Below are positions 3,001-60,419 of a DNA stretch of 64,000 nt, piece after piece; within the stretch, counting starts at the first letter, position 1; each line of letters begins with the position of its first letter. Under the pieces are notes generated by a model, which was given only the letters and a program-made list of their open reading frames with translations, had not been told where the DNA came from and made no database searches. Source of the DNA: a virus; IMG/VR virus record IMGVR_UViG_3300047509_000177, positions 27,382-91,381 of that record; one strand, given 5' to 3'. The position numbers were made by a program, and so were the translations under genes.

Positions 3001-4495
3001 GATTGGTATAGCTGAATTTTCTGAAAAAAATCTCGCTGAAGAATCGAAATATCTTCAAACCGAACAAAAAATAATTGATAAAGCTATATCTGAAACTAGA
3101 AAAATAAAACCAAAAAATCAGAAGCAAGCGCAAGCAAAGTCTACCGCATTGAAAACTTTAGCTGTAAAACAAAAAGAACTTCTTGAAACTATAGATCAAA
3201 ATGTAGAAGCTAGATACCAGGCTGAGGCTCAAACTATCCAGGCTAAAATAACTGAAGCTAATAATCAATATCAAGTTTCTTCCCAAGAACAACAAACTAA
3301 AATTTCTAAAGCTCAGGCTTTTGGTAATCTTGGAGAAGTAGGAAAGTTGGAGGAACAAACTGCTACTTCTGCTCAAGCTCAGATTTCTAGGCTAACCCCT
3401 ATGCTGGAACAAGCTCAGAAAATTGGTAATAAGGAACTTGAATCTAGTATAAAACAAGAAATTATTGGTTTACAGCAAACTATAAATACTACAGTAATAG
3501 AAAGAATCTCTAATGCACAGACTTTGATACAGAGAGAATCGGCGCAAGCTGAATCAAAAGTTGGTAGAAGGCTTGGGATTGCAAAGGTATTATCTGCTGA
3601 AGGAAGATATAGTGCTGCAAACGCTGAAGAAGAAGTAGGATTAAAAGAAAAAGGAACCAATTTACTCAATACCAGAGCGGTAGAGGAAAAACTAAAAGAA
3701 CAAGCTTTGCGGGAAGGCGATACTGCTGCTGCTATAACTTTGGGCGAGGAATTGGAAAAGAACAGTGTAGAAATAGCTGAAAATAATCTTGCTCTAAAAA
3801 ACAATGCTGCTGTGACAAGGGAATTAGTTCTTAGTCAAATAGGAAGAGAAACAGGAGTTGGAACAGGTATTTATGGGGCGCTTCGATCCGGGATCGAAAC
3901 AATAGGAAAGACAACTGGATTTACAAATGTTGCTGCTTTGATAACTACTGCAAAGGGCGAAGGCGCTGTGCTTGGGGCGGGCGAGAAAAAATATGAGGAA
4001 ACAGGAACTGAAATGGGATTTCAGACTGTTGGTATGACTGCTCAGCAGGTTCTTCAATATCTTACTTCTCCTGAAGCACAGTCTATAATCTCTAGAATAG
4101 AGACTACGGGCACAGAAGCAGAAAAAGCTGATCTTGAAAAGTGGCTTTTTGGGATAGAGGGCAACTCTGTTGCTATTTTGAAGAATACAGAAGAACTTGC
4201 GAGGTTGAATGGGCAGCTAAATCAACCGCAAAGCTTTTCTACTGCTGCTTTCAATGCCTTCAGGACTTCTTTCTTTACTGGCATGGGAGGGCTATTAGAA
4301 CCTTATTCGGCGGCGCTTCCGCCGGGATCTCGCCCAGAAGGTCTTCCTGTATATGGTTCTGGGCAAGTTGGAGCGCCTATGAGTTCAACTCATATTGAGA
4401 ATATCAATCTTACTCATCCTGTAGAGAAGCTTCATCCGGGTCTGTTGGGAGAAGAATTGTCCTACCATATTTCAGTGACACCGCCTACTTCATGA
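14..4495 (+). CDS. Tape measure protein (probably 5'-truncated by the window edge) with M23-peptidase-like and SLT lytic transglycosylase domains
   Basis: Long Ala/Gly/Lys/Glu helical protein with hydrophobic stretches; GRTDQGIDY (M23-like) and ESGWN...SSGAYGIPQ (SLT) motifs; lies upstream of the tail-tip genes. Confidence 0.9.
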   Translation: MSTVTGFTGAVKSATEWVKSHGPEVTKFFKEAREGLETIGGLLFTIGKDFLEAFSLSSLRALSGFLSQFLLPGLRDVINIIGKITTAVLDFFNLFGSAGRKALEVLAAFVLGTLGLIKVIAFINELRKAIIELWATIVALEGLAFWTAIGAGIVAAAAALGLFDSAQKKTKITTEEINNALERQAEALRTIKSLNDEYASSKLSVEEANLRVTQSEQTLARAKHSLAHPERPLSREERAEAVIGIKQDEQSVTRARLSAREAQENFEKLPEQQRETAKKETSVARKSAAEARALNKQNTEELRSLEKERTEAEQKISKGREVGGSIGHEIEVNAKSEVVKINEKIVSSNKKLKESQESLGTAVLRENEAINSSNALTSQGASKYSTAFAEAFSKFEESVRKGASSAHDGMGKIRKLVDDALKKYGVTPAEIASGSSAIGKVSSGISSAGRAVSKGLEGFASGGYIPAKSGGQIARVGEGGHDEVVLSTDPKYAGRSRALLGQYFSRAPHMAAGGYIYPFHGGATKGRTDQGIDYDLTPGSPITSIGDAKIKGIISNWFKGQSFLWYELLSGLDKGKNVYIAEQINRLSQVGSTVRAGQPIAYYAPSGTGLEIGWATSSGQTLAQATTGYREGQVTPAGASFGAFISGLQQGKVVGGLQAFKEIIAPKVKGGGIIGQISQRALNLAAKAANIYLEKHISSGGEANFAGVSGHGGAPSANEALGKRMMVAAGWPVGMWPSLQALWTQESGWNANSVNSSSGAYGIPQSLGHGHPYNLGDARAQIAWGLNYIRERYGSPVAAEAHERAFNWYAKGGVIQAVREFAAGGRAPWGGRPVPIIAHEGERIMNPAQYNATASLAGISPRGLDKYLGYDGSPRQNFAAGGGPIAIGQRSQPMSEFEPNLISQFTNIIFEIGNISNILKSFNKVKKAFSKLKKSSGENFVKNLEKIINEIVIETNGVLARLQEGREFFKARLERKSVEKEYTAKGGKIQLGSKGQIGIAEFSEKNLAEESKYLQTEQKIIDKAISETRKIKPKNQKQAQAKSTALKTLAVKQKELLETIDQNVEARYQAEAQTIQAKITEANNQYQVSSQEQQTKISKAQAFGNLGEVGKLEEQTATSAQAQISRLTPMLEQAQKIGNKELESSIKQEIIGLQQTINTTVIERISNAQTLIQRESAQAESKVGRRLGIAKVLSAEGRYSAANAEEEVGLKEKGTNLLNTRAVEEKLKEQALREGDTAAAITLGEELEKNSVEIAENNLALKNNAAVTRELVLSQIGRETGVGTGIYGALRSGIETIGKTTGFTNVAALITTAKGEGAVLGAGEKKYEETGTEMGFQTVGMTAQQVLQYLTSPEAQSIISRIETTGTEAEKADLEKWLFGIEGNSVAILKNTEELARLNGQLNQPQSFSTAAFNAFRTSFFTGMGGLLEPYSAALPPGSRPEGLPVYGSGQVGAPMSSTHIENINLTHPVEKLHPGLLGEELSYHISVTPPTS

Positions 4496-16477: not shown

Positions 16478-16739
16478 AAAGGGAAAGCATTCAGGATATA
16501 CAGAGCTAGGAGCAATCCAATTTAGAAGACTTAGGAAAGGAGATATTGAGTGGTGTTCTAACGAACATTATATTCCTAAGCATAAAGATAAGAGAAGTCC
16601 TAATGCAGGATCAGGATCAAGAAAAAATGCTACTCATACAGTATTTATATTAGGACTACATTCTGCTTATGTATGCGCTAAGTGTAGAAAAGAATGGATA
16701 GATACTTGGAAAAAATATTCACCAATAGAGTATGCATAG
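16470..16739 (+). CDS. Hypothetical protein, possibly Zn-binding
   Basis: CxxxH and CxxC; overlaps the helicase stop. Confidence 0.5.
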   Translation: MAKKGKHSGYTELGAIQFRRLRKGDIEWCSNEHYIPKHKDKRSPNAGSGSRKNATHTVFILGLHSAYVCAKCRKEWIDTWKKYSPIEYA

Positions 16740-16835
16740 TGCGCCTGGGGAGAATTGAACTCCCGACCTCCTGTTTGAAAGACAGGCGCTCTTTGAGACC
16801 CCGAAGGTTCTCGTTTACCACTGAGCTACAGGCGC
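16740..16835 (-). tRNA. Atypical tRNA: anticodon UUC, Val/Lys-like body, extra hairpin in the D-loop
   Basis: GCGCCTG/CAGGCGC acceptor, A73, GCTC/GAGC D-stem, CCTGT-CTTTCAA-ACAGG anticodon arm, GGGAG-TTCAATT-CTCCC T-arm. Confidence 0.8.
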
Positions 16836-16841
16836 ATGAAG

Positions 16842-16924
16842 TGCGGGAGACAGGATTCGAACCTGCAAGCCCTTTCGGACAGACCCTCTTAAGGGGTCCG
16901 CGTCGCCAATTGCGCCACTCCCGC
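16842..16924 (-). tRNA. tRNA-Leu(UAA)
   Basis: GCGGGAG/CTCCCGC, A73, GACCC-CTTAAGA-GGGTC, long variable arm. Confidence 0.92.
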
Positions 16925-43333: not shown

Positions 43334-43474
43334 AAAGGAGTAAAAATGACTTTAGTAGGAGCTTTGGTTGTTATTGCAATAATAGTAGGAGTAATATATA
43401 TAGTGAGTAGAATCAGGTGAAATAATAATAAGAATTGGCACAAACATACATGACTCACCCACAGAACAGAGGGC

Positions 43475-43885
43475 ATGAAAGAGCGTGGAGGGCAAGTTCG
43501 CGCGGAAGTTATTCCTAACGCGAAAAGCGACACGCTCAAGCCCCGTGTTCGCAAGGCCGTACAAGCCGATTCAACTCTTTACACGGACCAGTGGAAGGGC
43601 TACCACGGCCTCGATGAGAACTTCGACCACCAGACCATCAACCACGCGGAACATTATGTTGACGGTCGAGTCCACACAAACGGAATTGAGAACTTCTGGT
43701 CACTACTAAAGAGAAGTTTGCATGGAACTTATGTATCAGTAGATCCTTCTCATCTTTTTAGATATCTTGACGAGAGAGTATTTGCTTTCAATCAAAGATA
43801 TCTCAGTGATTACGGACGTTTCGAGACTGTGCTACTGGCCGTGACCGGCCGCCGCTTGACGTACCTGGAATTGACTAGCACCTAA
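43475..43885 (+). CDS. IS1595 (ISXO2-like) transposase, C-terminal fragment
   Basis: YTD...Y...H..INH...HTNGIENFWSLLKR...HL.RYLDE; lacks the Zn ribbon, HTH and first catalytic Asp. Confidence 0.85.
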   Translation: MKERGGQVRAEVIPNAKSDTLKPRVRKAVQADSTLYTDQWKGYHGLDENFDHQTINHAEHYVDGRVHTNGIENFWSLLKRSLHGTYVSVDPSHLFRYLDERVFAFNQRYLSDYGRFETVLLAVTGRRLTYLELTST

Positions 43886-43964
43886 TTGTGCTACAGAGCG
43901 ACGTGCAGTAGCTGCTATTAACGAGCGAGCCCCGGCCGGAGGTCAGTCCGAACCGGGGCTCTAT

Positions 43965-44038
43965 GGTGGCGGTAGTTCAATTGGAAGAACTCCCGACTTA
44001 AAATCGGGATCGTGCGGGTTCGAGGCCCGTCCGCCACC
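43965..44038 (+). tRNA. Atypical tRNA: anticodon UAA, short variable loop, His-like G-1:C73 acceptor
   Basis: G-GTGGCGG/CCGCCAC-C, GTTC/GAAC D-stem, CCCGA-CTTAAAA-TCGGG, GCGGG-TTCGAGG-CCCGT. Confidence 0.85.
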
Positions 44039-44200
44039 TTTCTTTCAATCAAGAGGTTATCGAAAGAAAGAATTTTTTGGGAAAGTATCAATGATTTTCT
44101 TTGCTTCGCTGTTGCGGATGCTTTGGGTGAGTCATGTATGTTTGTGCCAAAGGATTTGCAGTCCTTTCCCTATCAATCTCGGGCATCGCCATACGCAGCT

Positions 44201-44764
44201 TTACGCTGCTGGTGTTTCTGGTGTCGGGGTAACTTCCGGCGCGGGTTCTGCCGGGTGTTCCTGTTCTACTGGAGGAGTAGGATTAACTGGAGGCTGTTCG
44301 GGAGTTTCACTCGGCGGAGTTTCTGCCGGAGGAGTCACCGCAGGAGCAGGAACTAGGCTCTTAGCCTTTTCTACTACGGGACCAAGGCTTTCCTTGACGC
44401 TGCGAATTGCGGCTAATTCTGCGTTATTTTCTGCCAGCTTGGTGGAGTCGGCAGCAAGCTCAGAGTTGGCCTGCGTGATTGATGCTTCCTTTTCAGTAAG
44501 AGAGGTCTGTAGAGAAGTAATCTCAGTAGCAAGCCGAGGGACAACTTCGGCTAGAGTAGTCTCCTCTACGCCCAATTCTTCTGCAAGTGTAGTCATTTTG
44601 TTTAACCTTTCGTTGAGTTCACAAAGTTTATTTTTGATATCATATAGTGTATCATTAAATGCAATATGATTAGTTAGTTCTCTATTATATTGAAGCTTAA
44701 ACTGTCTTTCTACATAATGCTCAAATTCTTCACCATTATTTCTAGCTATATTGTTTACATTCAT
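44201..44764 (-). CDS. Coiled-coil protein with Pro/Glu/Thr-rich tail
   Basis: RBS GGAG before the ATG; heptad pattern; PAETPP repeats. Confidence 0.6.
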   Translation of the reverse strand: MNVNNIARNNGEEFEHYVERQFKLQYNRELTNHIAFNDTLYDIKNKLCELNERLNKMTTLAEELGVEETTLAEVVPRLATEITSLQTSLTEKEASITQANSELAADSTKLAENNAELAAIRSVKESLGPVVEKAKSLVPAPAVTPPAETPPSETPEQPPVNPTPPVEQEHPAEPAPEVTPTPETPAA

Positions 44765-45630
44765 TTAATTCTCCATCTCAAAAATTCCTCCAACGGAAAA
44801 TTTCCTAGTGTGCTACAAATGTTCTACAAGTAGCTATCTTATCCGAGACTTTGATAGCTGATAGTGGCGATCGACCGGGAATTAGCATGTTATATATATT
44901 AGTTATGCTAATGCCTTCTCAGACCACAATTCACAAGTTTATAGCTGTACTACCCATTCTACTTGGTTTACGTTTACTAATGCTTTTATCGGCGAGTTTT
45001 GTCCGCCAGTGGGTTTTTCTTCTACTTCAACAAATCCTGCACCATCTTCTTTAGTTGCTTCTTTTGCTAATGTTTTCCATTCTGTTAAAGAAGTTGGTAT
45101 AGAACAATCTTTCTTTTCGGTATCCCCAGGAGAACCATAGGAATTTAGATATATTCGCACGCCTGCCATAATTAATATTCTATCACTGAACTAAGATCAT
45201 TTACATTAAGAGCAAATTTCTGTGTAGAAGTATTAGGGATTTCTAGACCTTGAGGGTCTTTAGTTCCAACAGCTAATTCAAATTCAAGAAATCCTGATTC
45301 TTCATGCACGGCAGTTTTTGCTTTTTCGAGATAATGGGCTAGGGTTGCAGATACCCCACCAACTTTAGAAGCATATTTTCTTTCTACATTGCCTGGAGCA
45401 GCAAATGTTTTGTAGTTCAGCAAGAGCTTTTCAGCCATTTGTAATATCTCCCATGAGAGTATTTTCTTTGTTCTATTTCGGCGCAAATCGCGCCGAGAGT
45501 GTCATGACAGGAGACAGTATACAGATAAATTGAGGGCTCTACTCATAGCGGCTACTACAGATAGAGCCCTCTGGCGGGAACGTTGATGGAGCGGGCTTTA
45601 ACGTGCCCATGGTGAGTATATCAGAATTTC

Positions 45631-45648
45631 GGTAGTGGGTCAGTTTGA
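45631..45648 (+). repeat. Solo IS1-family-like terminal repeat
   Basis: GGTAGTGGGTCAGTTTGA near the start of a GC-richer segment; no partner copy seen. Confidence 0.35.
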
Positions 45649-45697
45649 AATCTCAGCCTACAGCAGGTTGTAGTTCGCGCATGTCGAATCGAGAGCT

Positions 45698-46051
45698 ATG
45701 GCCTGGTTCAAGACTCATGGATGGCGCGTGCTCCTCGCGGCTGCTGTGCTCGCTATCGCGTTCTGGGCAAGCAATGAACACGGGGTACCGAAGAATCTCC
45801 CGGCCCCTGCTCTCGGCTGGCGGCTGCTCTTCCATGTAGAGCGTGCCGTAGTCTTGCTGACGGCCATTGGCGCGGTGCTTTTGGTCGGTTGGCGAGCACT
45901 ACACGGAGAGTTTCCCATCAAGTTCGGACAACTAGAATATGCTGCTAAAGAGACGGCCGATAAGACCGACAGTCTAACTGGAGTTTTTGAGCAAAGACTT
46001 CAACTCGTAGAGGGTTTGATCGGTATTGCGGACCCGGCCCCTAAGGAGTAG
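45698..46051 (+). CDS. Small two-TM membrane protein (GC-rich, host-like)
   Basis: Hydrophobic helices; codon usage unlike the phage core. Confidence 0.55.
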   Translation: MAWFKTHGWRVLLAAAVLAIAFWASNEHGVPKNLPAPALGWRLLFHVERAVVLLTAIGAVLLVGWRALHGEFPIKFGQLEYAAKETADKTDSLTGVFEQRLQLVEGLIGIADPAPKE

Positions 46052-46338
46052 AATGAGGACTTAATGACGACAGAGCAAAACAAATATTCGTACACCGGTG
46101 TCAACCTAACCCCTACTTCGTCTGAGCATGATCAACGTCGTGCAAAGCTTCTGGAGCAGGCCCGCAGAGAAGTTCCAGCACTACGTGAACAGGTGGCAGC
46201 AGATCGAGCCGCTCTGCGTCGTATCGCTAAATCGTAAGAACGCAGCTAGGAGGGAAAGACGAAACTAACTACGAAACGCCGGGCAAACATTGTGACGTAT
46301 AGCACAAAGACACCCTTGTGCTACAACTTCGCTAGATG

Positions 46339-46422
46339 TGCGGCAGACGGGACTCGAACCCGTAATCCGTGGTGGGAACCCGGGCTCTAGCCGGGCGCGT
46401 TTGCCAGTTTCGCCACTGCCGC
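46339..46422 (-). tRNA. Leu-type tRNA body with anticodon AGA (Ser)
   Basis: GCGGCAG/CTGCCGC, A73, D-arm GCGAAACTGGCAAACGC, CCCGG-CTAGAGC-CCGGG, long variable arm. Confidence 0.8.
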
Positions 46423-46520
46423 ATGTAGTGCTCTACCCCCTCCAGAGCAGTCGAGAAATACCCCAACCACCAAGTAACGATTGATACTAGAAATCTAATG
46501 ATGCTTGTGCTACAAATATG

Positions 46521-46605
46521 TGCGGCGGACAGGATTCGAACCTGCACGGTGCGATGCACCCCGACTTGATGAGGGCCGGTGCGTCTACCATTCCGCCACC
46601 GCCGC
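46521..46605 (-). tRNA. Leu-type tRNA body with a 9-nt anticodon loop centred on CAU
   Basis: GCGGCGG/CCGCCGC, A73, GCGGAATGGTAGACGC, CCGGC-CCTCATCAA-GTCGG, V-arm GGTGC-ATC-GCACC. Confidence 0.8.
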
Positions 46606-46761
46606 GAGTCCCGGCCTGATCCGCCGGGACTCCGCGCATTCTAGCCGCCTACTTCTGACCTTCTGCTCGCTCAATCAGCTGCTATCAGGCGGTTCGGACG
46701 GAACTTCTATCCGCTGCTGATCGAGGACTTATGCACAGTGCTCGGCTAAGATCGGCTGCAC

Positions 46762-46855
46762 GGAGGGCGCTCCTAAGTGGTGTGTGGGGCCGGGCCTTCA
46801 TCCCGGTGACCCGTCTGAGACACGGCGGCGATTGGTTCGATTCCAACGCCCTCCG
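46762..46855 (+). tRNA. Allo-tRNA-like gene (8/4 fold, selC-like appearance), loop CCUUCAU
   Basis: 8-bp acceptor GGAGGGCG/CGCCCTCC, G73, 4-bp T-stem TTGG-TTCGATT-CCAA, long variable arm. Confidence 0.7.
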
Positions 46856-47001
46856 CAAGCTTCAGCCGAGCTTGTAGAACAACAGCCTATCATTAGATTA
46901 TTTGTGCGGTACGTTACAAACTATCTTTGTGCTCTATGCCACTATCTAGTTTCGTCGTTAGTTTCGTAGATGCTGATTCTGTTGATTGATATTGTCTGGT
47001 C

Positions 47002-47247
47002 GTGTCACGCGACTTCAAAGCTCTCGCCGAAGTCCTTGAAAGAAAGGCGAGCGACCGATGCCCATCCTGTGGTGGGCACCAATGGGCTGACTTCCGCGCG
47101 GTAGCTCTCCTGCAATACGTTGACGCCCACGAGCCGATAACCGAGTGCTATGGGCTCCCTGTGCTGCCCTTCGCCTGCCTCAACTGCGGCTTCGTTCGGC
47201 TGCATTCGACCCGCATCCTCGAAGACCAGTTCAAGCCCGAGGTCTAA
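47002..47247 (+). CDS. Small Zn-ribbon protein
   Basis: CPSC...CLNCG; GC-rich; flanked by direct repeats. Confidence 0.65.
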   Translation: MSRDFKALAEVLERKASDRCPSCGGHQWADFRAVALLQYVDAHEPITECYGLPVLPFACLNCGFVRLHSTRILEDQFKPEV

Positions 47248-47533
47248 GTAGACTTTGTGTTTGATATCACGTACATTCATGAACTAAATCGTTTCGTAGG
47301 TCGTTTCGTGGATGCTGAGATTTTAAAGGCTCGAATCATGGTTGGTATGCTTGTGGCTTTCCTAATAGGGCACAGGCCGGGAAGTGGAGCGGGCAGCACC
47401 CGGCCAGGAGAGCCCTTGGAAAAGGCCCTGTAGTATCTGGCCGGGTGTCCGCTTTAGCGTACATCTGTGTGGTATTACGTTTCGTAGTTAGTTTCGTCTT
47501 TCCCTCCTTTAGACCCTAAAACAGATTTTATCA

Positions 47534-47605
47534 CGCCCCTGGCAAGAGTCGAACTCGCATCTCTCGGGTAGAAACCGAGTGCCTTTTCCGTTGGGCCACA
47601 GAGGC
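47534..47605 (-). tRNA. tRNA-Arg(UCU)
   Basis: GCCTCTG/CAGGGGC, A20, CTCGG-TTTCTAC-CCGAG, G73. Confidence 0.88.
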
Positions 47606-47711: not shown

Positions 47712-48872
47712 TCAAAGAAAAGAAGATAAAACTGAGAATGAAGGCTTATGCGTTCTATTTTCCTTCTCTATACCATAATAAGCGTTTGATCCGTAATCTA
47801 CATAATTGAAGATTATAACCATATTGATATATTCTTTACTTTGACACCATTTTATGAAGTTAGAGATATTTTCTGCTTGCTGTTGTTCATTCCACTGTTG
47901 AGAATCACCAGTCGATGACTTTCCAACCGCAGTAGGCCATCCCACCTCTGTTATATATACTGGCTTTCCTGAAAGGTTATGAGCATCTTCTACTTGCTTT
48001 CTATCTCCCAGCGCGCCGCCGTGCTGACCGTTAGAACCACCATATGGATGTACAGTAACTCCATCGCAATAGTTGTATCCACCAAGCTTCTTTATTTCTT
48101 CTCCAAACTTATTTCCTACTCCGCCGCCGTCCCAGCTTGCCAGAATCTTCGGACGGATTTCCGCCGGGAAGTTATTTGCTAGTTCTTCGTGAACAACCTT
48201 TAAAAGATTAGTATATCCACTGTAGTTAGTAGGATCAGACCAGAACCAGCTTCCACCAGGCTCATTCAACACCTCCACACATTGCCCACCAAGATCTGTT
48301 TTTCCTGTCCAGAAAGTCCAGAAAGTTCCTCCCTTACCATACTTCTTGAAATGATTGACAATATTTTGAGCATATTCTTTGGTAGGAATTCGGCCGATGG
48401 TTCCACCTTCCCCAAATAGAGCACAAGCTAAAGTAATTCCGGCAGCAGAAGAATCTAGCATGTGCTGTTCGGTTACATAGGCATGAGAAAAACGCACATT
48501 TTTTACGGCCTTCGTAATATCGCTGTAAGATGAGCCTCCCCAACCGCCTGAGTCGAGCCCGATGATTAATTTAGAGGGGCTGGGAGCGGGCGTAGGAGTT
48601 GGTTCAGGGGCAGGAGTCGGCGCGGGGAGAGGAGTATTCTTAGTTTCCTTAGCAGCACCAGCAATAAGGGGCCGTACCCGGAATGCTGTTGGTAAAGTAG
48701 TTGATATTGTATATTTGTAATTCTTTGTAATTGTCTCAGACCATGCGGTAACTCCTTCTGGCTTCCATGCAATTAAGAACTCATAAAGATTTGTTGTTTC
48801 ATTTACTTCCCAAGTTAATTCAATTTCATTTACTTTGGGAATAGATTTCAAATTCTTTATTTCGATACTCAT
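47712..48872 (-). CDS. Clan GH-A glycoside hydrolase with N-terminal FN3-like domain and Pro/Thr linker
   Basis: EVLNEP acid/base, VHPYG, VYITEVGWPT nucleophile. Confidence 0.8.
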   Translation of the reverse strand: MSIEIKNLKSIPKVNEIELTWEVNETTNLYEFLIAWKPEGVTAWSETITKNYKYTISTTLPTAFRVRPLIAGAAKETKNTPLPAPTPAPEPTPTPAPSPSKLIIGLDSGGWGGSSYSDITKAVKNVRFSHAYVTEQHMLDSSAAGITLACALFGEGGTIGRIPTKEYAQNIVNHFKKYGKGGTFWTFWTGKTDLGGQCVEVLNEPGGSWFWSDPTNYSGYTNLLKVVHEELANNFPAEIRPKILASWDGGGVGNKFGEEIKKLGGYNYCDGVTVHPYGGSNGQHGGALGDRKQVEDAHNLSGKPVYITEVGWPTAVGKSSTGDSQQWNEQQQAENISNFIKWCQSKEYINMVIIFNYVDYGSNAYYGIEKENRTHKPSFSVLSSFL

Positions 48873-49295: not shown

Positions 49296-50603
49296 TTATA
49301 CCTTAGTTTTCAATAAAGGAAACATTATAACATCTCTAATATTCTTCTTTCCCAAGAGTAGCATACAAAGACGATCTATTCCAATACCAACTCCGGCCCA
49401 AGGCAGTGCTCCCATTTCTAGAGCTTCGATGTAGTTTTGATCGTATGGGTCATATTCTCGTATATTTTCTCCAAATTCATTTGTGAAAAACTTTTTGCTT
49501 TCTGGTTCCTTTAGGCGCGTTTCCTGCTCATGTGGGTCATTCAAGTCTGATGCTCCAGAAGCAATCTCCATATCATCTATATATAGCTCCCATGCCTCTG
49601 CTCTGTTTCTATGTCTACCTTTTCCAATTGATTTTCTACTCAAGGGCCAATCAGACGATGGTAAGTCTGCATCGAAAATCATAGGATACTCATGAGGGCA
49701 TTTTATTGAACATGACACATTTCTAATTAAATCTTCAGTAAAACAAATCATATCTAGGTCAGTCTTACAACTCTCAAATATCTCTAGATTAGTGAACTCT
49801 GGGTTGTGTTCGGGACTAATTCCCTCATTTCTAAAGCACCTTGAGAAAGCATATACTCTATCGAACCCGCCAACGAGTGCGCGCTTAAGGTATAGCTCTG
49901 AGGAAATAGATAGGAAAAATTGTTGTCCAAGAGTATTGTGTTGTGTTGTAAATGGCTTCGCAGTTGCTCCACCATAGATGGGTTGGAGTATGGGAGTTTC
50001 AATCTCAACGAAGTCTCTTTCATTCAGATACTTCCTTATCTCAAATACTATTTCTGCTCTCTTCTTAAATACCTCGCGCGAATCCGCGCTGGACATCAGA
50101 TCCTGCTCGCGGTGCCTGTACTTATGCTCAGGGCTTTTCAGGCCATTTCGCTTATCGGGAGGCTCTCGTAGTGCCTTGGCTAAAAGCGTGAAATTAGAAA
50201 TTAAAAGAAGGGGCTTCCCACGCGGATTCTGGCCTAGTGCCCCTTCTACTCCGACCATATCTCCAAGATCGCATTTTATAACGCTATCAAGGACTATTTG
50301 AGATTTTGCGAAATCTAGTTTTCCTGACTCTATGGGGCCATAAATTAGTTGGATTGATCCCGTCTGGTCAAATAAGTCAAAGAATATAGTCTCTCCGTGA
50401 TGCCTTCGAGCAGATATTCTTCCTGCTATCTTACAAAAATTATCTGAAGGAACATCAACTTTTTCTCTAGTAAGGATTTCATGGAGAGTTACGGTTGATG
50501 GTCGATTTAAAACATATTGAATTGTTTCTCGGCCAGGAAAATCGCGCGGGTAGGGGTTAGAATTATTCTGTATCTTCTTTAGTCTCTCTATAGAATTACT
50601 CAC
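49296..50603 (-). CDS. lysS: Divergent class II lysyl-tRNA synthetase paralog
   Basis: OB-fold anticodon domain, EIETP..Q..GGA, ELYLKR, FRNEG..HNPEFT, GIGIDR; pocket residues altered. Confidence 0.85.
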   Translation of the reverse strand: MSNSIERLKKIQNNSNPYPRDFPGRETIQYVLNRPSTVTLHEILTREKVDVPSDNFCKIAGRISARRHHGETIFFDLFDQTGSIQLIYGPIESGKLDFAKSQIVLDSVIKCDLGDMVGVEGALGQNPRGKPLLLISNFTLLAKALREPPDKRNGLKSPEHKYRHREQDLMSSADSREVFKKRAEIVFEIRKYLNERDFVEIETPILQPIYGGATAKPFTTQHNTLGQQFFLSISSELYLKRALVGGFDRVYAFSRCFRNEGISPEHNPEFTNLEIFESCKTDLDMICFTEDLIRNVSCSIKCPHEYPMIFDADLPSSDWPLSRKSIGKGRHRNRAEAWELYIDDMEIASGASDLNDPHEQETRLKEPESKKFFTNEFGENIREYDPYDQNYIEALEMGALPWAGVGIGIDRLCMLLLGKKNIRDVIMFPLLKTKV

Positions 50604-59441: not shown

Positions 59442-60419
59442 TCACAAGAGTTTGATCTGCGGCGTGAGCAGATTCCGGTAGGGATGAGGTTCGGTCACGA
59501 CTCCCTGCTCGATCAGCCGGTAGAACAGCAGGCCGCGAGAGCGGCTTGCGCGGCGGTTGAAGCGGAACACGTACTCGTCGCAGTAATAGTCCAACTGCTC
59601 GCGCGACATGCCGCCCTGATGCGTGCCGAGCAACCACCGCTTGAGCAGACTGGCGACGCGGTGAGCGTGCGGCATCGTGACGTGCGCGTCCGCTGCCTCG
59701 GGGTCGCTCATGTTCGTAACTTCATGCTGGTAGCCGTAGCGGCTGATCGAGCTGTAGCTCCCGAAGGCGTCCGTGTGGATGATCGAGCCACGCGCCACGT
59801 TGTCGAGGATGAACTCGATGAGCGTCTCGGCCTTAGTGTCCGGCACGCGAGCAAGTCGAAGGCGTCCAGCCTTGAGACGTTCGCCAGTGCGGCCGTGAGC
59901 CTCGACCGCGATCACAACGATCGCCTTCCCGTGTGGCGAGCGACCACCCGCCTTCTTGGTCTTGATCCCGCCGATAAACGTCTCATCCACCTCGACCACA
60001 ACACCGGGACCACCGATCATGTCCCGGCCAGGGCGCACCATCGCACGGCGCAGCTTGTGCATCCACGCCCACGCCGTCTGGTAGGAGCCGAAGCCAAGCT
60101 CACGCTTCAACCCGAGCGCGCTCACACCGTTCTTCTGACTAACGACGTGCCACATGACGTGGAACCACACACGCAGCGGATAGCGTGTCTTGTCGAAGAT
60201 CGTGCCAGCCGTCACGCTCGTGCGCTTGCGACACGCCGTGCAGCGCATAAGGCCGCTGCCCATGCGCCAATAGTCGCCTATGACACCGCAATGCGGGCAC
60301 ACAAAGCCGTTGGGCCATCTGATCTTCTCGACGTACGCGAGACACGCCTCCTCGCTATCGAACCGCTCGATGAACTCGCTGAAGGTGCGGGGGTAATCCG
60401 CGCTCGCAGCGGGGGTCAT
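59442..60419 (-). CDS. IS1595-family transposase, apparently intact
   Basis: RWPNGFVCPHC Zn ribbon, SVTAGTIF, EVDET, HTD, SLLKRWLLGTHQG, EYVFRFNRR. Confidence 0.95.
   Translation of the reverse strand: MTPAASADYPRTFSEFIERFDSEEACLAYVEKIRWPNGFVCPHCGVIGDYWRMGSGLMRCTACRKRTSVTAGTIFDKTRYPLRVWFHVMWHVVSQKNGVSALGLKRELGFGSYQTAWAWMHKLRRAMVRPGRDMIGGPGVVVEVDETFIGGIKTKKAGGRSPHGKAIVVIAVEAHGRTGERLKAGRLRLARVPDTKAETLIEFILDNVARGSIIHTDAFGSYSSISRYGYQHEVTNMSDPEAADAHVTMPHAHRVASLLKRWLLGTHQGGMSREQLDYYCDEYVFRFNRRASRSRGLLFYRLIEQGVVTEPHPYRNLLTPQIKLL

Follow-up and report, generated by a model that had tools for sequence, protein, structure and literature searches.

Why would a phage carry transfer RNA (tRNA) genes in which the anticodon belongs to one amino acid and the rest of the molecule to another? 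This question is raised by a locus in a viral genome from the IMG/VR database (record IMGVR_UViG_3300047509_000177; 91,381 bp, rated 98% complete), of which we analysed bases 27382-91381, a stretch of 64,000 nucleotides hereafter called the window. An earlier note, made from the letters alone, had singled out four atypical tRNA genes within ~3 kb (43965-46856), and ARAGORN together with Infernal confirms these genes, here named t3 to t6 (Table 1). Our answer, which we favour but hold tentatively, is that t3-t6 are cargo of mobile elements, that they belong to a published class of irregular tRNAs, and that they are probably charged according to their body. Its members are 8/4 and 9/3 allo-tRNAs whose anticodons are not those of Ser, and tRNAs with an extra 5′ G (G-1) whose anticodons are not those of His (Mukai et al. 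2017, Nucleic Acids Res, PMC5389517; review PMC7609411; here and below we draw on parts of the cited papers).

Table 1. Coordinates of the tRNA genes, mobile cassettes and motifs discussed in the text (positions in the window unless another genome is named; ORF, open reading frame; aa, amino acids; MITE, miniature inverted-repeat transposable element; IS, insertion sequence).
Feature	Position	Strand	Description
t3	43965-44039	+	class I; G-1 is encoded and pairs with C73, CCA is not encoded; loop CUUAAAA, anticodon UAA (reads UUA)
t4	46338-46422	-	class II, A73, Leu-type D arm; loop CUAGAGC, anticodon AGA (reads UCU)
t5	46520-46605	-	class II, A73, Leu-type body; 9-nt anticodon loop CCUCAUCAA containing CAU
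t6	46762-46856	+	8/4 allo-tRNA/tRNA-Sec-like, G73, 6-bp anticodon stem, long variable arm; loop CCUUCAU, UUC in register, C33
t1	16739-16835	-	fifth irregular tRNA; anticodon UUC, non-Glu body, A73, ~24-nt hairpin inserted in D-loop
t2	16841-16924	-	ordinary tRNA-Leu(UAA), 5 nt from t1
t7	47534-47605	-	ordinary backbone tRNA-Arg(UCU) (ARAGORN, Infernal), conserved in relatives; contrast to t3-t6
Cassette A	43435-44150		716 bp, 30-nt inverted repeats 43435-43464 / 44121-44150 (97% complementary); holds t3
Transposase of cassette A	43475-43885	+	IS1595 family, 5′-truncated; PF12762, E 5e-30
Cassette B	46248-47508		1261 bp, perfect 31-nt inverted repeats 46248-46278 / 47478-47508; holds t4-t6
First GC-rich ORF	45698-46051	+	117 aa, hydrophobic N-terminus; GC of the two ORFs 0.52-0.56; no Pfam/PADLOC family
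Second GC-rich ORF	46064-46237	+	57 aa; no Pfam/PADLOC family
Zn-ribbon ORF	47002-47247	+	81 aa, CxxC...CxxC, in cassette B; only sub-threshold Zn-ribbon matches
MITE/IS terminal repeat	45631-45650	+	GGTAGTGGGTCAGTTTGAAA; Acidobacteriota family; marks left part of second GC-rich insertion (~45500-47508)
Phage-clade motif	46317-46325	+	TGTGCTACA (TTGTAGCACAA on tRNA strand); ~12 nt past t4 3′ end
Motif copy	46506-46514		after t5
Motif variant	46873-46881		TGTTCTACA, one mismatch; after t6
tRNA-like gene of phage G003	G003:953-1019 (L167)	+	degenerate; Ala-type acceptor G3:U70, A73; loop CUUAAAA as in t3

All four are genuine tRNA genes. Where the gathering score of the Rfam tRNA family is 29 bits, t3, t4 and t5 reach 59.9, 54.7 and 45.2 bits in Infernal (E 1e-11 to 1e-7), and the stems of all four are intact in the ARAGORN folds, as the earlier note had held, apart from one mismatch in the D stem of t6 and irregular loops in t5 and t6. 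The acceptor stem of t3 (7 bp; D, anticodon and T stems of 4, 5 and 5 bp) is extended by an encoded G-1, the G at 43965 preceding GUGGCGG and the 3′ side ending CCGCCAC-C, so that G-1 pairs with C73. Acceptor, D, anticodon and T stems measure 7, 3, 5 and 5 bp in both t4 and t5, with a variable stem of 3 bp in the former and 5 bp in the latter. In t6, an acceptor stem of 8 bp and a T stem of 4 bp form a 12-bp branch (ARAGORN), and a variable stem of 5 bp carries an 8-nt loop. The Infernal alignment of t6 to the selenocysteine tRNA (tRNA-Sec) model also gives a T stem of 4 bp, and the ninth acceptor pair of that alignment would need the base preceding the gene. The 12-bp branch, the long variable arm, G73 (in the identity set of seryl-tRNA synthetase, SerRS) and the non-Ser anticodon are the structural features of (8/4) allo-tRNAs. 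Across the whole genome ARAGORN finds seven tRNA genes, every one inside the window; Infernal confirms 6/7 as tRNA, and the seventh, t6, matches tRNA-Sec below threshold.

The anticodon loops are of two kinds. Textbook seven-membered loops with U33 and a purine at 37 are found in t3, t4, the fifth irregular tRNA t1 and the acidobacterial homologues described below. The loop of t5 is of 9 nt, or alternatively of 7 nt closed by a C.A mismatch with C37, and position 33 of t6 is C33, not U33. Two further identities were considered and rejected. A bacterial tRNA-Sec does not fit t6, which scores 45.1 bits against RF01852, under the gathering score of 47, has UCA one base out of register and, with its T stem of 4 bp, does not form an 8/5 branch. 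Stop-codon suppressors do not fit either: the UUA, CUA and UCA triplets of the loops are out of register, and the phage has long ORFs when read with the standard code and makes use of each of the three stops.

The mismatch between body and anticodon is real, firmly so for t4 and t5 and less firmly for t3 and t6, judging by the homology of the bodies to His, Leu and Ser tRNAs, and on this point the earlier note was right. t4 is 77% identical to an acidobacterial tRNA-Leu(UAG). The t5 body shares its D arm and its entire acceptor stem with a Dormibacterota tRNA-Leu(CAG), the identity between the two genes being 73%, and both t4 and t5 show the class-II fold, A73 and a D arm GCG...CGC with G18 G19 that mark Leu identity. 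Against all 46 ARAGORN-called tRNAs of the complete acidobacterial chromosome G332, they lie nearest to its Leu tRNAs, and the ordinary t2 and t7 group with Leu and Arg(UCU). The Ser tRNAs of that chromosome, four in all, differ from t4 in having G73, a GCC/GGC or similar D stem and a variable region ~4-10 nt longer. Two acidobacterial tRNA-His(GUG) genes share 76% identity with t3 and differ from it mainly in the anticodon arm; within the G332 set, however, His ranks only fourth (0.67; Val, at 0.72, is ahead). The nearest tRNAs of G332 to t6 are those for Ser, weakly (0.63). As cognate tRNAs these genes fail on the anticodon, which is UAA, not GUG, on the His-like body of t3, and AGA and CAU on the Leu-type bodies of t4 and t5. 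Histidyl-, leucyl- and seryl-tRNA synthetases (HisRS, LeuRS and SerRS) do not read the anticodon.

The earlier note had proposed to look for homologues with a varying anticodon on conserved identity elements, and such homologues exist for the t4 body (AGA, AUC, UUA) and for t1 (UUC vs UGC). Searches of Acidobacteriota covered a sample of ~400 genomes, in which only the best candidates per genome were scored. The closest relative of t4, an irregular Leu-bodied tRNA of 84% identity, comes from acidobacterial genome G175, where its anticodon is UUA (ochre) and it lies ~235 bp from an IS1595-family transposase gene. Moreover, G332 has every canonical tRNA, among them four for Ser (with G73) and five for Leu, and in addition two t4-type bodies, whose anticodons are AGA and AUC. 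In an alignment of these four sequences (AGA, UUA, AGA, AUC), 22/22 predicted pairs hold and 9/22 are changed on both sides. Read from this alignment, the t4 family is a constrained tRNA family that exchanges only its anticodon. A34 recurs in it (AGA twice, AUC), and such anticodons would fit selection for reading only the U-ending codon, rare in GC-rich genomes. The related phage G001 has the homologue of t1 (L160:4325-4419, +): its acceptor stem is identical, its anticodon is UGC, and where t1 has its hairpin it too has one, of different sequence. A BLAST search with t6 found no homologous tRNA in 401 Acidobacteriota genomes, and exact-pattern scans of IMG/VR gave nothing for the t3 body or the cassette-B repeat. 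The Leu D-arm pattern was discarded as a probe of IMG/VR, being unspecific and matching mostly ordinary phage tRNA-Leu(UAA).

These data also bear on the suggestion that t3-t6 are decaying pseudogenes, dead copies of host tRNAs brought in by insertion sequences. The transposase fragment near them is truncated, the loops of t5 and t6 are irregular and no t6 homologue was detected, as decay would have it. However, all stems are intact, the Infernal scores are 45-60 bits, t3 would need three anticodon substitutions in a loop that is otherwise canonical, and the t4 family shows compensatory change and repeats AGA in independent genomes. We regard this suggestion as most improbable.

Two features neighbour the acidobacterial members of the t4 family. 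In G175, the irregular tRNA(UUA) and the IS1595 transposase have between them a 73-nt mini transfer-messenger RNA (tmRNA)-like element (L174:1698-1770, +), which consists of the tRNA-like ends only, with G3:U70, A73 and CCA, and may have been left by an island that had integrated at ssrA. A small ORF of G332 (L361:2630-2911, +) ends 3 nt from the irregular tRNA(AUC) and resembles, by eye, a GIY-YIG-type nuclease.

The tRNAs t3-t6 are mobile, and lie in elements bounded by inverted repeats; both points had been made in the earlier note and both hold. The repeats are perfect over 31 nt in cassette B and 97% complementary over 30 nt in cassette A, and the GC-rich insertions are missing from a complete sister phage. 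We recovered the relatives of the window's phage (G000) by means of a LysRS-like protein: G001, a 60-kb fragment; G002, the sister phage, of 93.6 kb and complete with terminal repeats; and G003, of 91 kb. t3-t6 are absent from all three, G001 having different irregular tRNAs, whilst the backbone tRNAs Leu(UAA) and Arg(UCU) are common to all four phages. The insertions have 50-60% GC (cassette A ~50%) in surroundings of 36-40%. G002 has no counterpart of cassette A between the RusA-like gene and the homologue of 44201-44764, and lacks cassette B, the tRNA-Arg directly following the homologue of 45172-45486.

Within cassette A, the transposase matches only positions 43-153 (the C-terminal 111) of the 153-position DDE profile and is without a Zn-ribbon; it is 37% identical to the transposase beside the acidobacterial tRNA(UUA) and 42% to that of G003. 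IS1595-family genes accompany irregular tRNAs in four independent genomes, namely G000, G001, G003 and the acidobacterial G175. The 81-aa Zn-ribbon ORF of cassette B has one homologue in 5.8 billion proteins.

The earlier note had named an actinobacterial host among those for expressing the tRNAs; the insertions point elsewhere. At least 16 acidobacterial genomes contain 93-100% matches, 22-33 nt long, to the terminal repeat at 45631-45650, and a genome may hold up to 18 copies; the 18 copies of G238 include inverted pairs 134-258 bp apart, and one copy lies 1.4 kb from the tRNA(AUC) of G332. The window holds a single copy, where none is expected by chance. Because an acidobacterial MITE/IS end lies in the insertion, the insertion DNA, and probably the host too, would be acidobacterial and not actinobacterial.

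A third mobile insertion lies elsewhere in the window, where a complete IS1595-family transposase gene (Zn-ribbon and DDE; 59442-60419, -) occupies a 63% GC segment of the stretch at 59.4-62 kb. Rfam finds no tRNA-like RNA in this GC-rich stretch. We attempted to assign a host from this transposase and abandoned it as not decisive, since it has only 51-65% identity to genes in metagenome-assembled genomes of Bryobacterales (multi-copy elements), Dormibacterota and Anaerolineales.

For transcription, processing, charging, decoding and the beneficiary we infer the following course. The cassettes would derive from a GC-rich, most likely acidobacterial, gene pool and would have entered a probably virulent soil siphophage of ~40% GC at a variable hot spot in its genome. 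Each body bears what appear to be the identity marks of an anticodon-blind synthetase: G-1:C73 of t3 would be read by HisRS, the class-II fold, A73 and Leu-type D arm of t4 and t5 by LeuRS, and the 8/4 fold, long variable arm and G73 of t6 by SerRS. Each anticodon, that of another amino acid, would pair with an A/U-ending codon. Once transcribed, the tRNAs would be excised by RNase P and 3′ processing, receive CCA and be charged by body; a sigma-70 promoter scan gave no convincing promoter for them. With canonical U33-NNN-R37 loops, t3 and t4 could insert His at UUA and Leu at UCU, whilst t5 (9-nt loop) and t6 (C33) would be doubtful decoders. Selection would act on the cassette or IS1595-type element and on its bacterial pool, where the codons are rare, and not on the codon supply of the phage, in which the cassettes would be tolerated passengers. 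Since the phage tolerates them, decoding activity would be low, conditional or absent.

Codon usage bears on who might benefit. TTA, TCT and ATA account for 27%, 41% and 37% of their codon families in the phage vs 1%, 7% and 7% in Acidobacteriota, the host figures coming from a sample of acidobacterial ORFs. In the same sample AGA is 4% of its family, and GAA, at 44% of Glu codons, is not rare. The claim that the target codons are rare in a GC-rich host and common in the phage therefore stands for TTA, TCT and ATA, and holds only weakly for GAA. The phage uses the standard genetic code: in 101 orthologue pairs, the residue aligned to a phage codon is L for TTA (0.66), S for TCT (0.49), I for ATA (0.48) and E for GAA (0.54), fractions in line with those of their synonymous codons, and an altered code is thereby ruled out. 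Service to rare codons of the cassettes themselves was also rejected, as cassette ORFs hold 0-1 TTA or TCT each.

These figures invite a different answer, that any tRNA body has been recruited to decode codons favoured by the phage and rare in the host, possibly unseen by host anticodon nucleases, with correct charging or tolerance through host-specific or unknown rules. Phage tRNAs that evade tRNA-targeting defences are published (PMC10264068, PMC11555353). The anticodons UAA, AGA, CAU and UUC (also UUC of t1) match codons that make up 27-62% of their families in the phage and 1-7% (GAA 44%) in Acidobacteriota, and codon supply likewise accounts for the tRNAs that the clade already has, Leu(UAA), Arg(UCU), Ile(UAU), Thr(UGU) and Gln(UUG). 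Moreover, irregular tRNAs recur at one junction in three relatives, beside a phage motif. However, charging poses a difficulty, LeuRS, SerRS and HisRS being blind to the anticodon: for t3, Leu is excluded by the combination of C73 and G-1, and for t4, A73 and the shortness of the variable stem speak against Ser. An orthodox tRNA-Leu(UAA) is already present in the phage. The complete sister phage G002 has the same codon bias and lives with Arg(UCU), Leu(UAA) and Gln(UUG) tRNAs only; therefore, the phage's decoding does not need t3-t6. Finally, Leu-bodied AGA and AUC tRNAs also occur in the GC-rich G332, beside a full canonical set, where they supply no codons for an AT-rich genome. We consider recruitment for codon supply unlikely.

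The earlier note had gone further and read the locus as a mistranslation or codon-sabotage toolkit. Mobility and mismatch, on which that idea drew, are borne out, as is the varying anticodon that the note had proposed to look for; the sabotage itself meets a carrier that is AT-rich and exposed, with no defence or toxin-antitoxin gene and no self-immunity found. As a model, the phage or a defence element that it carries would use t3-t6 to mistranslate AT-rich competitors or invaders. It would suit this model that the target codons are rare in GC-rich genomes, that cassette ORFs are nearly free of TTA and TCT, and that the mismatch involves anticodon-blind synthetases. However, TTA, TCT and GAA make up ~10% of the codons in the phage's long ORFs and have their standard meaning. 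Therefore, active mischarged tRNAs would harm the carrier, the party most exposed, far more than a GC-rich cell. No means of self-protection was found: the window contains no complementary copy of any anticodon arm that could act as an antisense antidote, and the cassette ORFs have no PADLOC match and nothing above Pfam thresholds, thus no defence or toxin-antitoxin family. A role in protecting lysogens finds no support, as no tyrosine or serine recombinase was found in G000 or its relatives G001-G003 and there is therefore no evidence for integration of the phage. The weapon model is, in our view, very unlikely.

The position of the cassettes is not unique to the window's phage. At the same junction G001 and G003 have GC-rich islands of their own. 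The island of G001 contains a Zn-ribbon fragment of IS1595 type together with the t1-like tRNA(UGC) and another tRNA, whose loop has 8 nt; that of G003 contains a complete IS1595-type transposase and a degenerate tRNA-like gene, which is detected with relaxed ARAGORN settings only and not by Infernal. Some 13-25 nt downstream of each irregular tRNA lies the motif TTGTAG[A/C]ACAA, followed for t4, t6 and the G003 gene by the repeat GTTTCGT-N5-GTTTCG. The 9-mer TGTGCTACA and its variant TGTTCTACA also form tandem or clustered arrays in the clade backbones (window 44809-44831; G000 3038-4103; G002 80496-81085; G003 71601-72388), which, as sequences, look like operator or iteron sites, and one motif copy lies at the empty junction of G002 (13238). 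Nested copies of GTTTCGT-N5-GTTTCG lie in cassette B at window 46277 (-) and at 46949, 47291 and 47479 (+), and one copy lies at G003:1290. This repeat ends tRNA units, brackets the Zn-ribbon ORF of cassette B and is shared with the G003 cassette, though G003 proteins are only 38-54% identical; it may be a protein-binding or recombination site, and no recombinase for it was identified. The shared units of tRNA, motif and repeat hint at site-specific capture or at regulation at the level of the phage.

The tRNA with an 8-nt loop from the G001 island is of class I (L160:6552-6625, +), with the anticodon loop CGUGGAAA followed by the motif TGTAGCACA. It could be a frameshifting or a non-decoding tRNA.

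The recurrent junction and the shared motif units keep alive both recruitment for codon supply and another alternative, that t3-t6 are tRNA-like RNAs that are processed, perhaps charged, and kept off the ribosome. They would be of use to the cassette by punctuating its processing, by signalling recombination or landing, by drawing off anticodon nucleases as decoys or by acting as synthetase sinks. The 9-nt loop of t5 and C33 of t6 suit such a role, as do the repeated units, common to G003, that each tRNA opens (tRNA, TTGTAG[A/C]ACAA, GTTTCGT-N5-GTTTCG) and the tolerance of t3-t6 genes by a lytic phage. In published work, G-1 tRNAs were charged without inserting His, and of the allo-tRNA(UAU) variants six were inactive and two toxic (PMC5389517). 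However, t3, t4, t1 and the acidobacterial homologues retain their textbook 7-nt loops with U33 and purine-37, the bodies are restricted to anticodon-blind identity sets, and the bias of the anticodons to A/U-ending codons, with A34, is hard to explain without codon reading. That t3-t6 do not decode at all is, we think, not likely.

A more elaborate conjecture joins these observations. The clade would keep an integron-like landing site (TTGTAGCACAA) at the meeting point of its two transcription arms and collect there IS1595-mobilised cassettes of purpose-built missense tRNAs, with His, Leu, Ser or Ala bodies and A34 or U34 anticodons reading only codons that are rare in GC-rich hosts. These would form a translational weapon or switch made of RNA alone, with a timing or dose that spares the carrier, e.g. 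against co-infecting AT-rich phages or AT-rich host defence genes. We regard this as quite unlikely.

Several observations weigh against reading t3-t6 as passengers charged by body. Irregular tRNAs occur at the same junction in 3/4 related phages, each followed by the phage-clade motif, and this pattern is more readily seen as the outcome of repeated selection, or of site-specific capture by the phage, than of random hitchhiking. The five irregular anticodons of the phage (t1, t3-t6) all match codons that it uses heavily, as codon supply predicts. Neither inverted-repeat pair is flanked by a target-site duplication, and the only nearby transposase is truncated; of the features of an IS1595 element, cassette A thus has the inverted repeats and lacks an intact transposase and the 8-bp target-site duplication. 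For t3 and t6 no close homologue with a variant anticodon was found in the Acidobacteriota genomes or, for the t3 body, in the IMG/VR pattern scan. Lastly, the G-1 tRNAs of Mukai et al. were charged and yet gave no His insertion in vivo, so that charging need not mean decoding (PMC5389517).

Reading t3-t6 as mobile cargo of the irregular class nevertheless agrees with much of what is published on that class. Allo-tRNAs and G-1 tRNAs were reported from acidobacterial soil data, near transposon-related and toxin-antitoxin genes, and include 'polycistrons of irregular tRNAs' from soil metagenomes; allo-tRNAs with non-Ser anticodons inserted Ser in Escherichia coli, including at Leu codons, and HisRS of E. 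coli charged G-1 tRNAs that had a Thr anticodon (PMC5389517). Membership of this class is evident in t6, with its 8/4 fold, long variable arm, G73 and non-Ser anticodon, and in t3, with G-1 and a non-His anticodon. The link to Acidobacteria and to transposon-related genes and the clustering of several irregular tRNAs are likewise common to both. In contrast, the tRNAs here are carried by an AT-rich phage, itself near-complete, in IS1595-associated cassettes with inverted repeats at their ends; A34 is found among the anticodons, and no toxin-antitoxin genes are adjacent. Moreover, t4 and t5 are ordinary 7/5 Leu-bodied class II tRNAs, a kind absent from the parts of Mukai et al. (2017) drawn on here.

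Phage tRNAs of codon compensation and defence evasion (PMC10264068, PMC11555353) resemble t3-t6 in being phage-carried and in matching phage-rich, host-poor codons (GAA weakly). However, the parts of these papers drawn on here describe tRNAs that keep their cognate identity and differ mainly in the anticodon loop, whereas t3-t6 have the whole body of another amino acid. t3-t6 are also recent insertions, not conserved among related phages, and it is the backbone Leu(UAA) and Arg(UCU) tRNAs of the clade that fit the codon-compensation class. Cassette A resembles IS1595-family elements (DDE_Tnp_IS1595, Zn_ribbon_IS1595) and their deletion derivatives in its terminal inverted repeats and DDE_Tnp_IS1595 fragment, and differs in having a tRNA gene as passenger and no target-site duplication; cassette B is without a transposase. 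A further parallel is offered by the tRNA-Pro variants of Streptomyces with Ala, Thr or Asn anticodons, which with a dedicated ProRS paralogue are deliberately mistranslating tRNAs. These too are natural tRNAs of GC-rich soil bacteria in which anticodon and identity disagree, but they use a dedicated synthetase paralogue, whereas the bodies of t3-t6 fit housekeeping synthetases that are blind to the anticodon.

Mismatched tRNAs of this kind have been described once, in 2017, and are still unexplained; the present locus supplies a concrete genetic setting. To this setting belong the IS1595-linked cassettes bounded by inverted repeats, a recurrent hot spot in a phage clade and a Leu-bodied family shared by Acidobacteriota chromosomes and a phage. 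With these genes as a defined set, it can be tested directly whether they are natural missense tRNAs or non-decoders in the shape of tRNAs. As decoders they would be mobile agents that mistranslate specific codons, and would offer ready-made, orthogonal-looking scaffolds for genetic-code engineering; as non-decoders they would represent a new kind of function for tRNA-derived elements.

The carrier itself is probably a virulent soil siphophage. The window has ~41% GC, and a turn in GC skew near 44-46 kb indicates that two gene arms converge there. Its gene content is siphovirus-like, with a DnaE-type polymerase, an SF2 helicase, a Sipho_Gp37-like tail protein, a RusA-like resolvase, an FtsK-like ATPase and a LysRS-like synthetase. 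Among cultured phages megablast found no close relative, and the DnaE-type polymerase is at most 32% identical to that of any.

The LysRS-like protein is a class II synthetase of 435 aa (window 49296-50603, -) that scores 377 bits against NCBIfam NF001756 (PRK00484), whose cut-off is 468; ~75 residues are missing between motifs 2 and 3 and the pocket motifs are altered. It is kept at 42-60% identity in G001-G003 and in L061, all without tRNA-Lys, and has ~30 homologues, several on contigs of ~90 kb. Because it is conserved in relatives that lack t3-t6, this gene is not tied to them. A 386-aa glycosyl-hydrolase-like protein (47712-48872) has its sole IMG/VR relative on a fragment of 66% GC, L005 (IMGVR_UViG_3300036652_002697), which also encodes a tRNA with the unusual anticodon ACC (Gly, A34).

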